Positions 2,795 through 5,539 of a stretch of 64,000 nt of DNA are shown here, one piece after another (the first letter of the stretch is position 1; every line of letters starts with the position of its first letter). The notes under the pieces were generated by a model that ran no database searches, was not told the origin of the DNA, and saw only the letters and a program-made list of their open reading frames with translations. A program made the position numbers and the translations under genes. This DNA comes from Escherichia phage vB_EcoM_Lh1B, in the sequence record OK428535.1; one strand, 5' to 3'.

Positions 2795-5539
2795 ATGGTA
2801 GAAATTCAAATGACTTACACGAGTATGGGGGTACGGGTTGAAGTCCCCATCCGCCAGGCTGAAAGGGCCATACTCGCGTGGGCCGAAGAGAATATGCACG
2901 CCCCAAAGATGGGCAAGCAACATGGACGAATAACCACGGAACGCGGCGATGCGTACTACGCCCACATTCCGTCTTTAAGGACATTCATTTTCCATAAAGT
3001 GTTCGCTGAGAAGATTAAACATATCCTCCAACGGGCAGCAATTGAATACGCTTTTCAGTACAAGCTTACAGAGCACCATCCTGAACGAGGAACACCTTAC
3101 AGCTGTACATTTGATAACTACGGTTTCTCGATGGTAGAAAGCGATCCGGAGTCGCGGTTCTATTATCAGAACGAGGTTGTGGATGCAGCATCCGATCCAA
3201 ACCGACCACAGACAATCTTTGCCATTCAGACAGGGAGAGGAAAATGCTGTGCTCATGGTACGCGTGTGCGTGTACCGGGTGGTTGGAAGAACATTGAGGA
3301 TATACAGCTAGGTGATTACGTTACGGGGCGTGACGGAAAACCAGCAATGGTCTCTGGAGTGTTCCCACAGGGTGTGGTTGACCTGTATCAGGTGACGTTT
3401 TGGGATGGTAGGAGTGTTGACGTATGTGGCGAGCACTTGTGGCAAAGCTACTACGTTAATACCACCGAGAATCGTCGCTGGGGTGTACGTGATACCCTAG
3501 AGATGAAACGTTTAATTTCGATGCCTAATCCACGGGTATACATCCCATTACCAGAACCAGAGGAAATGCCAGCTAAGGATTTTGTCATTCATCCGTATTT
3601 ACTCGGTATCCTCTTGGGTGATGGCTCCCTATCGATGCCTGGTGTTTTATACACCAAAGGCGATGTGGAGATTCGTGACCGTGTTGCTGAGGTCATGCCC
3701 GCTGGACATGCAATCCATGATTCATCGTACAGCGATGGGATAACGAAGTGCATCTCTTGTCCCGGCGGTGTTAACCTTGTCCGCAGAGAGCTTGAGCGGT
3801 TAGGGTTAATTGGCTGCAGGTCTTGGGAAAAGTTCATACCTGGAGATTACTTCGAAACGTCCATCGAACAACGGTGGGAGTTGTTGCGTGGCTTGATGGA
3901 TACTGACGGTACTGTGGATAAGGATGGTGGTACGCCTTCTTTCTGTTCCACCAGTAAAGAATTGGCTTTAGGTGTTCAGGAACTTGTGCGGTCTTTAGGA
4001 GGGATTGCAACACTACGCGAGAAACGTCCGTTCTTCACACACAACGGCGAACGTCGTGAAGGTCGTTTGGCTTATAACGTCTCCATCCGCCACAAAACAC
4101 CATCGAAACTGTTCCACCTTCCAAGGAAGAAAGAACTGTGTCGTGATAACGGACAATACACCGATATACTGAAACTCCGTGTTAAGTCTATCGAACCCAT
4201 TGGTCGTGATCTTGCCACGTGTATTCGTGTCGAGAACGACGATGCGTTGTTTGTGGTGGACAAGTGGATCGTTACGCACAACACCAAGACCTGTATGAAG
4301 TCGATGGTTAAACGGGGAACCCGTACCGCATTGATTCACCGTCCGTCATACGTTCCCAAATGGCTGTTTGACGTCTGTGATGATGAAACAGGACTTCGTA
4401 TACTTCGTGACGAGGTGTTAGTTTGTACAGGCGTACAGGCGATTTACGACGCACTGGAGATGGGTAAGTCGGGAGAGCTAGATAGACGCGGTATTAAGGT
4501 AATAATCCTCCCCACGGTCTCTCTACAGCGTTTCCTGAAGGAGTACATTAACACTGCTGCGACTAACCCTGTGGACCTGGATACGTTTTATGATGTTCTG
4601 GGTGTGGGTCTGGTGGCGATGGATGAGGTGCACGAGCATTTTCACCTCGTTTACATGGCTGGTATAATGTTGAACCCGCCGGCATCGATAGAGATGTCTG
4701 CAACTCTTAAACCGGGTAGCAGTAAAGCCTTTATCGCGGAGCGGTATTTAGAACGTTTCCCAATGGAGTACCGAATCAGTATTCCAATCATTCCGGTGGT
4801 TGACGTGAAAGCGTTGTACTATCGACTGGATGATAAGAAGTTCGCGTGGTGGGCGTCGAAGATGACGCCGTATAACCACAAACTCTTCGAAGGGAAGCTG
4901 ATTAAAGAGAACTTGCATTTAGAATACGCGAACATGATCTGGGATGTGGTTGAGAAATCGTTCCTTAAACGGTATCAACCCGGCCAGAAGTGTTTGCTGC
5001 TATTTGCCACGGTTGCAATGTGTGAGTTCTTTACCGAGTATGTGAAAGATAAGTTATCGCGTGACCCTGTATTCCATCCACTGATGGTGGCGAAATATAA
5101 TGCAGGCGATTCGTATGACGACTTTATCCAAGCAGACTTCTCTATCTCCACACCGGGGAAAGCGGGGACTGCGGTCGATAAACCTGGGTTGGTGCACATG
5201 TACATTTCAACCCCGGTAGAAGACCAGCAACTGAACGAACAGATGGCCGGTCGTCCACGTAAGATTCTCCACAACGAGTGGGGTGAAATAGACCCAACGG
5301 TGTGGTTATTCCATGCGTATAACGTACCGAAGCATTGCAATTACTTGAATGCCCGCCAGAAATCACTCAAGGATGTCGTATTGTCGTTCCGTATCGCGAC
5401 ATCCCCCTACGTTGTAAGGAAATCACATGCTCACTCCGCCGCGTCCAGCAGAGCCACTGCCGCCCTACATCGGAATGACTTTAGCAAGTTTTCTCGAAAA
5501 CATTCTAAAGGCGTATCCCGGCGTAGAAGACGTCGCTAA
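2795..5539 (+). CDS. SF2 DExH-box helicase, intein-containing precursor
   Basis: Walker A AIQTGRGK..T split by intein; DEVH (motif II), SAT (III), QMAGRPRK (VI); ATG 2795 follows terminator and GAGGGG; 3' end (RRRRRR tail, overlap with next ORF) uncertain. Confidence 0.8.
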   Translation: MVEIQMTYTSMGVRVEVPIRQAERAILAWAEENMHAPKMGKQHGRITTERGDAYYAHIPSLRTFIFHKVFAEKIKHILQRAAIEYAFQYKLTEHHPERGTPYSCTFDNYGFSMVESDPESRFYYQNEVVDAASDPNRPQTIFAIQTGRGKCCAHGTRVRVPGGWKNIEDIQLGDYVTGRDGKPAMVSGVFPQGVVDLYQVTFWDGRSVDVCGEHLWQSYYVNTTENRRWGVRDTLEMKRLISMPNPRVYIPLPEPEEMPAKDFVIHPYLLGILLGDGSLSMPGVLYTKGDVEIRDRVAEVMPAGHAIHDSSYSDGITKCISCPGGVNLVRRELERLGLIGCRSWEKFIPGDYFETSIEQRWELLRGLMDTDGTVDKDGGTPSFCSTSKELALGVQELVRSLGGIATLREKRPFFTHNGERREGRLAYNVSIRHKTPSKLFHLPRKKELCRDNGQYTDILKLRVKSIEPIGRDLATCIRVENDDALFVVDKWIVTHNTKTCMKSMVKRGTRTALIHRPSYVPKWLFDVCDDETGLRILRDEVLVCTGVQAIYDALEMGKSGELDRRGIKVIILPTVSLQRFLKEYINTAATNPVDLDTFYDVLGVGLVAMDEVHEHFHLVYMAGIMLNPPASIEMSATLKPGSSKAFIAERYLERFPMEYRISIPIIPVVDVKALYYRLDDKKFAWWASKMTPYNHKLFEGKLIKENLHLEYANMIWDVVEKSFLKRYQPGQKCLLLFATVAMCEFFTEYVKDKLSRDPVFHPLMVAKYNAGDSYDDFIQADFSISTPGKAGTAVDKPGLVHMYISTPVEDQQLNEQMAGRPRKILHNEWGEIDPTVWLFHAYNVPKHCNYLNARQKSLKDVVLSFRIATSPYVVRKSHAHSAASSRATAALHRNDFSKFSRKHSKGVSRRRRRR
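3245..4282 (+). mobile_element. intein with LAGLIDADG homing-endonuclease domain (about 346 aa)
   Basis: Starts with Cys directly after GRGK; LLGILLGDGSL and LLRGLMDTDGTV motifs; ends IVTHN followed by Thr, which restores GRGKT. Confidence 0.8.

Follow-up and report, generated by a model that had tools for sequence, protein, structure and literature searches.

The 64,000 nucleotides (nt) of Escherichia phage vB_EcoM_Lh1B analysed here (sequence record OK428535.1; hereafter the window) come from an SPN3US-like jumbo phage of the genus Seoulvirus, Lh1B, and contain a gene for a superfamily 2 (SF2) DNA helicase that is interrupted by an in-frame insert of 346 amino acids (aa). The insert is probably a mobile intein of the Trp-Cys-Thr (WCT) type, that is, of class 3, located between the lysine and the threonine of the Walker A motif of an XPB-like helicase. 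Directly established are the insertion, the fold, the conserved catalytic residues, the patchy presence and absence among related phages, the pattern of sequence identity and the purifying selection.

Insertion between the P-loop lysine and threonine

The intein-split gene occupies positions 2795–5539 of the window on the plus strand, or 2738–5539 if the open reading frame (ORF) is counted from its first TTG. The ATG at 2795 is the start used for the helicase in EC001, SPN3US and other relatives; it gives a precursor of 914 aa, which is on record as an exact match (UGO35764.1, Escherichia phage vB_EcoM_Lh1B). The predicted spliced helicase has 568 aa and is the orthologue of SPN3US_0036. The insert comprises 1038 nt (3245–4282, plus strand), corresponds to residues 151–496 in the numbering from the ATG and 170–515 in that from the TTG, and lies between the Walker A Lys and Thr (GRGK/T, the slash marking the insertion point). 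It starts with CCAHGTRVRV and finishes with KWIVTHN, after which the C-extein begins with TKTCMK; around the two junctions the precursor reads ...IFAIQTGRGK/CCAHGTRVRVPGGW and DKWIVTHN/TKTCMKSMV... A first-pass annotation, made from the sequence alone, had given exactly these coordinates, and the motifs that it quoted (LLGILLGDGSL, present within 3596–3631, a second LAGLIDADG motif, and DEVH, SAT and QMAGRPRK of the host) are all present. The features of the locus are listed below, with intein residues numbered from the intein's own N-terminus.

2795–5539, plus strand: intein-interrupted helicase gene (ORF; start annotated in relatives)
2795–3244, plus strand: N-extein, 150 aa, ending in AIQTGRGK (3221–3244); G147, G149 and K150 invariant in 29 homologues
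3235–3244, plus strand: upstream intein-associated flank GGGAGAGGAAAA (GGTCGTGGGAAG in the closest intein-free allele, the five differences all being synonymous)
3245–4282, plus strand: intein of 346 aa, a LAGLIDADG endonuclease domain interrupting a Hint splicing domain (Pfam, homologues, AlphaFold2 model, Foldseek)
3245–3283, plus strand: splicing block A, CCAHGTRVRVPGG; residues 1–2 are Cys-Cys here and Ala-Leu in SPLA3, SPLA5c and JN03
3413–3454, plus strand: splicing block B, SVDVCGEHLWQSYY; His64 (B:10) at 3434–3436, Trp66 (B:12) at 3440–3442
3596–3631, plus strand: LAGLIDADG motif 1, YLLGILLGDGSL; catalytic Asp126 at 3620–3622; G125 and D126 invariant
3881–3916, plus strand: LAGLIDADG motif 2, LLRGLMDTDGTV; Asp219 invariant, Asp221 (3905–3907) nearly invariant
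4205–4258, plus strand: splicing block F, RDLATCIRVENDDALFVV; Cys326 (F:4), the proposed initiating nucleophile, at 4220–4222
4262–4282, plus strand: splicing block G, KWIVTHN; Thr344 (G:5) at 4274–4276, then His345 and Asn346 (4280–4282)
4283–4285, plus strand: Thr at +1, predicted C-extein nucleophile and Thr of the GRGKT P-loop; Thr or Ser at +1 in nearly all relatives
4283–4291, plus strand: downstream intein-associated flank ACCAAGACC, with four differences from the nearest intein-free allele (ACGAAATCG), changing TKS to TKT
4283–5539, plus strand: C-extein, with helicase motifs II (DEVH, 4622–4633), III (SAT, 4697–4705) and VI (QMAGRPRK, 5240–5263), whose residues are conserved in homologues; its fold matches SF2 enzymes

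The helicase gene was compared by megablast with 50,697 phage records. Its full 2802 nt were found in four of them (EC001, SPLA3, SPLA5c and JN03), and about 30 related phage records matched in two pieces with a cover of 62%, which corresponds to all but exactly 1038 nt. In alignments of the extein with intein-free homologues, at both the protein and the DNA level, the gap falls exactly between Lys and Thr: the sequence is GRGK-TKSCMK in phages 1252 and SPFM4 and GAGK-SKSFMK in SPN3US. The intein-free site is ...CAGACAGGTCGTGGGAAG/ACGAAATCGTGTATG... in DNA, with ...CAGACAGGTCGTGGGAAG/ACGAAATCGTGTATGAAG... in 1252 and SPFM4 and GGAGCCGGGAAA/TCTAAGAGC in SPN3US. The insert is thus in frame and missing from orthologues, and the host is contiguous once it is removed. 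The first-pass annotation had placed it inside the Walker A P-loop and anticipated that its removal would restore GRGKT, which is how natural intein-free alleles read. No second intein of the same family was found within the 64-kb window.

An intein with a LAGLIDADG homing endonuclease

When the insert was searched against Pfam, LAGLIDADG_3 (E-value 1.3e-10) and Hom_end (1.2e-4) scored above their curated cut-offs, both matches spanning the region of the second motif (intein residues 204–284). Matches to the insert at E ≤ 1e-5 were obtained for 97 database proteins (the best at 4e-193), and a phmmer search of Protein Data Bank (PDB) sequences retrieved the gp41-1 inteins, the Msm and Mch DnaB1 inteins and PI-SceI. 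An AlphaFold2 model of the intein, computed from 45 sequences, had a mean predicted local distance difference test score (pLDDT) of 94.2 and a predicted template modelling score (pTM) of 0.92. Its top Foldseek matches were full-length intein endonucleases, PI-SceI (E 8e-17, template modelling (TM) score 0.73) followed by TliVMA and PI-PfuI, and the best matches among mini-inteins were those of class 3, Mch and Msm DnaB1 (TM 0.77–0.81 relative to the target). The model has the Hint fold, and the block residues H64, H345, N346 and Thr+1 are present and invariant in the 45 sequences. The endonuclease part also matches the fold of I-DmoI; in the 45-sequence alignment D126 and D219 show no variation and D221 almost none, as expected of a double-motif LAGLIDADG enzyme with its alpha-beta-beta-alpha-beta-beta-alpha fold. 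Judged by its sequence and predicted fold, the insert is an intein with a homing endonuclease, for which splicing, endonuclease activity and the cleavage target are predicted. Profiles, database relatives and model fold thus bear out the first-pass annotation on this point.

Both Hint models of Pfam remained under their curated cut-offs, Hom_end_hint at an E-value of 4.2e-7 (30.6 against 32.1 bits) and Hint_2 at 4e-3 (18 against 28.4 bits). Such scores would be in keeping with a decayed or domesticated insertion that no longer splices or whose endonuclease is dead, and which is inherited only vertically. We regard this as highly improbable. Neither the splicing domain's catalytic residues nor the two LAGLIDADG aspartates show any loss or variation, the P-loop that the insert divides belongs to a single-copy gene known from 291 related phage records, phages carrying the insert were isolated in that state, and an identical intein is found in diverged exteins with a patchy distribution among near-identical genomes. 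Furthermore, the ratio of nonsynonymous to synonymous substitution rates (dN/dS) is 0.11–0.13 for the whole intein and 0.03–0.04 for the endonuclease part, and these values argue that both predicted activities, splicing and endonuclease, are maintained.

Splicing class and the variable first residue

Class 3 inteins are defined by Trp at B:12, Cys at F:4 and Thr at G:5, and it is Cys F:4, not residue 1, that attacks their N-terminal junction (PMC2807308, PMC3196547, PMC5222942, PMC7664689); they form a monophyletic clade (PMC3196547). In the Lh1B intein this signature consists of Trp66, Cys326 and Thr344, and H64, W66, C326, T344, H345 and N346 are invariant among the 45 aligned sequences. Each of the three signature residues falls opposite its counterpart when the sequence is aligned with the class 3 Msm DnaB1 intein (6bs8; HQW, and the catalytic Cys in 'RCVEV'), and the +1 residue is Thr, in keeping with class 3, where this position holds Thr or Ser and rarely Cys. 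The 97 relatives of the intein, 30–43% identical to it, reside in PhoH-like ATPases, terminases, DnaB and other ATPases. Their near-universal pattern is a start with Ala after the GK of the P-loop, EHLW in block B, QC-I in block F and VTHN in block G, followed by Thr or Ser. Among solved splicing domains, the family profile matched most closely the engineered gp41-1_WCT (1.6e-25), the class 3 inteins Mch DnaB1 (3.6e-25) and Msm DnaB1 (1e-23), and the class 1 intein gp41-1 (2.4e-20), the latter being the only class 1 mini-intein under 1e-3.

The first residue behaves differently from the signature residues. The inteins of SPLA3, SPLA5c and JN03, which are isolated phages with 240-kb genomes, are 97–99% identical to that of Lh1B at the DNA level and begin with Ala-Leu-Ala-His instead of Cys-Cys-Ala-His; the Ala-Leu start was also found in many 240-kb contigs. 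The protein belongs to a 90% cluster of 162 members; of 15 that were sampled, ten start with Cys-Cys and five with Ala-Leu. More broadly, 29 of 120 helicase clusters (41–100% identical to the Lh1B helicase) carry an intein at the same site. Across the resulting 30 same-site inteins, Lh1B included, residue 1 is Ala in 9, Cys in 8, Val in 7, Ser in 4, and Met and Gly in one each, while Trp B:12 and Cys F:4 are found in all 30 and Thr G:5 in 28. A catalytic residue would not vary in this way. Since the WCT residues are invariant, residue 1 varies and near-identical alleles start with Ala, Cys326 rather than Cys1 is the likely first nucleophile, and Cys1 and Cys2 of the Lh1B allele are probably dispensable.

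A canonical class 1 reaction, in which Cys1 would carry out the N-to-S acyl shift and Cys326 would merely fill the block F slot that is usually occupied by Asp, is unlikely by comparison. It could draw on the Cys1 of the Lh1B allele, of 10 of the 15 sampled cluster members and of 8 of the 30 same-site inteins, on gp41-1 (class 1, with THN) being among the closest solved relatives, and on the 3 of 37 WCT inteins known in 2010 that started with Ser or Cys. However, alleles 97–99% identical in DNA start with Ala-Leu, both in isolated phages and in many 240-kb contigs, and other inteins at the same site start with Val, Gly or Met, whereas in the class 1 inteins that have been tested a non-conservative replacement of residue 1 blocks splicing (PMC3196547). 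W66, C326 and T344 are invariant where residue 1 is not, and the Asp at F:4 and the Thr at B:7 that are usual in class 1 are both replaced by Cys. The first-pass annotation was right that the insert starts with Cys-Cys; the canonical Cys1 chemistry that it implied is not favoured, given the WCT signature and the near-identical alleles with Ala1.

A dual-route or transitional intein is marginally less likely still: either Cys1 and Cys326 would both be able to initiate the reaction, or a redox-sensitive disulfide between the Cys-Cys start and Cys326 would gate maturation of the helicase. Cys1 has been gained or kept repeatedly at this site (8 of 30), the dense patch that distinguishes Cys-Cys from Ala-Leu starts (7 of the first 9 nt) has a recombination history separate from that of the upstream tract, and in Msm DnaB1, a class 3 intein, a disulfide involving the catalytic Cys acts as a reversible inhibitor (PMC6195587). 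On the other side, the variation of residue 1 among Ala, Cys, Val, Ser, Met and Gly resembles relaxed constraint, not selection for a nucleophile. That the Cys-Cys start is not neutral at all, with the class 1 and class 3 routes both open or with a redox switch between Cys1/Cys2 and Cys326, is likewise improbable, if slightly less so than either of these alternatives taken singly. Were both routes open, the Cys1 and Ala1 alleles would form a natural pair, one member of which could splice either way and would be a living intermediate between two mechanistic classes; in the other version, a redox switch would set the time at which a helicase tied to the RNA polymerase of the phage itself matures.

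Besides the Hint scores given above, several points weigh against our interpretation of the insert as a mobile class 3 intein. Cys at position 1 departs from the original definition of class 3, which asked for a non-nucleophilic residue 1, and for WCT inteins starting with Ser or Cys (3 of 37 in 2010) the mechanism was left open by Tori et al. 2010. As engineering of WCT into a class 1 intein gave no working class 3 intein (PMC7664689), the triplet alone is no proof of mechanism. A class 1 route in the Cys1-bearing Lh1B allele itself also retains a small probability. On the side of mobility, the clustered flank differences described below could partly be an old linked haplotype instead of co-conversion in the latest transfer, and the essentiality of the helicase is inferred from its conservation. 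Having considered these points, we hold it likely, on the pattern of residue conservation, that the Lh1B intein uses the class 3 route.

Between the Cys-Cys and Ala-Leu starts, 7 of the 9 nt at window 3245–3253 are different (TGCTGTGCT for Cys-Cys, GCTCTCGCG for Ala-Leu), the rest of the inteins being 97–99% identical. The patch was found with both types of upstream tract and also in a divergent allele from a Salmonella Derby contig described below, a distribution that suggests recombination among intein alleles. A compensated frameshift was considered as an origin of the patch and rejected, since, on inspection, shifted alignments fit no better.

Host helicase

The extein without the intein matches only PHROG 16, 'DNA helicase' (1.6e-57). 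In 29 intein-free homologues the residues G147, G149 and K150 of motif I, D264, E265 and H267 of motif II, S289, A290 and T291 of motif III, and Q470, R474, P475 and R476 of motif VI (spliced numbering) are invariant, and G473 is nearly so. The Pfam matches of the host to ResIII and DEAD were weak (0.0099 and 0.13) and comparison of the spliced extein with the sequences of PDB chains found nothing useful; placement of the helicase therefore required structure prediction and a fold search. The model of the intein-free protein (pLDDT 84.7) is most similar in fold to XPB/Ssl2 of TFIIH and archaeal XPB, and then to other SF2 proteins (DbpA, HsdR, ISWI and RecQ). With motifs I (GxGKT), II (DExH), III (SAT) and VI (QxxGRxxR) on two RecA-like domains, the host is an SF2 helicase of the DExH type, as the first-pass annotation had proposed from its motifs.

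By tblastn the helicase was found in 291 jumbo-phage records, from phages of Pseudomonas (including phage EL), Erwinia, Vibrio, Serratia, Ralstonia and other hosts. In Lh1B it directly follows two RNA polymerase subunit genes (window 643–2748, adjoining 2795–5539), and the same gene order is found in the distant Erwinia phage Deimos-Minion (gp254–256; L009:1483-7134). A corresponding arrangement has been described for gp248–250 of phage RAY, whose gp250 is described as a core helicase of SF2 with localisation in the phage nucleus (PMC10299810). From this synteny we infer that the Lh1B helicase is orthologous to RAY gp250. As a side observation, XPB/Ssl2 is the promoter-opening translocase of TFIIH, and this fold together with the neighbouring RNA polymerase genes hints at a role of the helicase in transcription rather than in replication.

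Recent mobility and mosaic alleles

The inteins of Lh1B and EC001 do not differ at any of 1038 nt, while their exteins differ at 13 of 450 and 27 of 1257 nt (40 of 1707 in all). The probability of finding no differences in the intein at the rate observed in the exteins is ~2e-11. Closest in its exteins is phage 1252, which is intein-free. Of 1707 nt, 12 differ, and nine of these fall at −10 to +8 of the insertion point (GGGAGAGGAAAA/ACCAAGACC in Lh1B, GGTCGTGGGAAG/ACGAAATCG in 1252). Co-conversion of short flanking stretches in the course of homing would be expected to leave such clustering, and together the comparisons support recent homing at this site. The suggestion of the first-pass annotation that the element marks lateral flow between phages is thus upheld by an identical intein in diverged exteins and by differences clustered at its flanks.

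The 29 intein-bearing clusters with an insertion at the same site span 41% to 99% identity, and several of the alleles have distinct histories. In alleles of the SPLA3 type, ~50 differences from Lh1B are concentrated in a tract of ~220 nt whose end lies 9 nt within the intein, with hardly any outside it; in this tract (window 3035–3253) the N-exteins of SPLA3, SPLA5c and JN03 are only ~77% identical to that of Lh1B. P0137 represents a second intein lineage, which has 59% protein identity to the first, starts with VCRWDQ and has the same flanks as Lh1B, so that the downstream flank of the Lh1B intein also accompanies P0137. The latter shares the proximal ~150 nt of the divergent upstream tract with the SPLA3-type alleles. 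A search for the donor of the divergent 150–220-nt tract of SPLA3, JN03 and P0137 retrieved no phage record above ~80–90% identity over part of its length. In the Salmonella Derby contig AAPGIT010000170 (L008) the Hint parts are common with Lh1B, and the endonuclease domain is strongly diverged, with synonymous sites saturated. At least three intein alleles are present at the same site in near-identical SPN3US-like helicases, including this contig and two metagenome contigs (L012 and L013). The patterns of the Derby contig and P0137 suggest domain-wise recombination and replacement of alleles, and because the Cys-Cys/Ala-Leu patch occurs with both types of upstream tract, the intein alleles are, by their sequences, mosaics.

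A search for intein-free SPN3US-like alleles that keep the TKT flank, as would be expected after precise loss of the intein, found none, all 43 of 43 such clusters reading TKSCMK; the only intein-free TKTCMK belongs to the distant phiEaH2.

Proposed course of splicing and homing

For a mobile class 3 intein at this position the following course can be envisaged. The gene would be translated as the 914-aa precursor, which is presumably inactive as an ATPase because its P-loop is split. Cys326 (F:4), aided by His64, Trp66 and Thr344, would attack the Lys150-Cys151 bond to give a branched thioester, from which the N-extein would move onto the side chain of Thr+1. Cyclisation of Asn346 would then free the intein, and an O-to-N shift would yield the 568-aa helicase with GRGKT intact. 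The freed intein, acting as a double-motif LAGLIDADG endonuclease, may in mixed infections cut intein-free helicase alleles at the P-loop codons, and repair from intein-bearing genomes would copy the intein together with ~10 nt of flank on each side.

The helicase site combines empty sites, at least two intein lineages, mosaic alleles and footprints of recent transfer at one conserved position, and offers a convenient natural system for the study of homing among nucleus-forming phages. The Cys1 and Ala1 alleles, 97–99% identical and in the same extein context, amount to a natural experiment on residue 1 in WCT inteins.

Gene names and other features of the window

The same gene is publicly annotated as 'putative ATP-dependent DNA helicase', 'terminase large subunit', 'LAGLIDADG family homing endonuclease', 'Recombinase A' and 'hypothetical protein'. 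The intein alone matches PHROGs labelled 'terminase large subunit', 'primase' and 'DnaC-like', families with inteins among their sequences, and this is why SPLA3 and SPLA5c carry the terminase name; more generally, the terminase and RecA names arise because the intein resembles inteins in those families. The annotation as terminase large subunit in SPLA3 and SPLA5c, which would call for a terminase ATPase and an RNase H-like nuclease domain in the extein, was rejected, as the extein matches only helicase and folds as SF2, and the terminase PHROG matches come from the intein. Recognition of the intein thus fixes the conflicting annotation of the helicase, the terminase name being an artefact of intein similarity. 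In Vibrio phage pTD1 (L010:1593-5119) the label 'phage terminase, large subunit @ intein-containing' is attached to the orthologue of the helicase as well as to the gene next to it upstream. We rejected this as evidence of an intein: the helicase coding sequence has 510 aa and no insert of intein size, and the label is probably a spurious automatic annotation.

The 3' end of the helicase gene (window 5427–5539) encodes a basic tail ending in RRRRRR, which was modelled with low confidence. It overlaps by 113 nt an ORF of 127 aa (window 5427–5810) that is annotated in SPN3US, EC001 and JN03 and not in SPLA3, 1252 and SPFM4. Comparison with the collinear genome of SPFM4 revealed three further length differences, none with a Pfam match. 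A 629-nt segment of the window (29454–30082), with a 196-aa ORF at 29480–30070 on the plus strand, is missing from SPFM4. Conversely, two SPFM4 segments are missing from the window, one of 461 nt (SPFM4_00035, hypothetical; L011:13789-14249) near ~14830 and one of 614 nt (SPFM4_00064, just after the major capsid gene; L011:41590-42203) near ~42791. The window also contains 280 N in 237 very short runs (at 6524–7000 and elsewhere up to 59712), which cause X-rich translations such as that of the ORF at 6484–8454; they are an issue of assembly quality and leave the intein region unaffected.

Comparison with known inteins

Class 3 was first defined on the DnaB intein of a mycobacteriophage, and its members reside mostly in the P-loops of helicase-like ATPases of phage origin (PMC4031507), with Lys/Thr as the 'classic' P-loop insertion site (PMC5050341). 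Known examples in P-loops of phage and prophage ATPases are the inteins of mycobacteriophage Bethlehem DnaB, the Deinococcus (D.) radiodurans Snf2 protein, the mycobacteriophage terminase TerL1-a and Msm and Mch DnaB1 (PMC2807308, PMC5050341, PMC6195587, PMC7664689). Like these, the Lh1B intein has Trp at B:12, Cys at F:4, Thr at G:5, His at B:10, a C-terminal His-Asn and Thr+1, and is inserted between the Walker A Lys and Thr/Ser of a helicase-like host in a phage context; like the intein of mycobacteriophage Bethlehem DnaB, it carries a LAGLIDADG endonuclease. Unlike them, it starts with Cys-Cys (Ala-Leu in sister alleles), and its host is not DnaB, Snf2 or a terminase but an XPB-like SF2 helicase of nucleus-forming jumbo phages. 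Its identity to the class 3 inteins of solved structure is low, ~25% over the N-terminal part.

With PI-SceI, PI-PfuI and TliVMA the Lh1B intein shares a Hint domain interrupted by a double-motif LAGLIDADG endonuclease, and, as in inteins of the PI-SceI type, the host is a P-loop ATPase or comparably essential enzyme and spread would be by homing. PI-SceI differs in being a class 1 intein with a Cys1 nucleophile and Cys+1, without WCT and with a larger DNA-recognition region; the two inteins are ~17% identical. The closest class 1 relative by sequence is gp41-1, a cyanophage-like split intein with which Lh1B has in common THN in block G and the context of a phage helicase. In contrast to the Lh1B intein, gp41-1 has a Cys1 nucleophile, Phe at B:12, Asp at F:4, a natural split and no endonuclease.

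Our literature search found no paper on an intein in the helicases of SPN3US-like or related jumbo phages, and reviews of jumbo phages refer to inteins in general terms only. Inteins of class 3 at the P-loops of helicase-like ATPases from phages have been on record since 2010, and the Lh1B intein fits that picture and leaves current understanding unchanged. What it adds is an XPB-like jumbo-phage host, a Cys-Cys start and the richness of the intein population at a single site.

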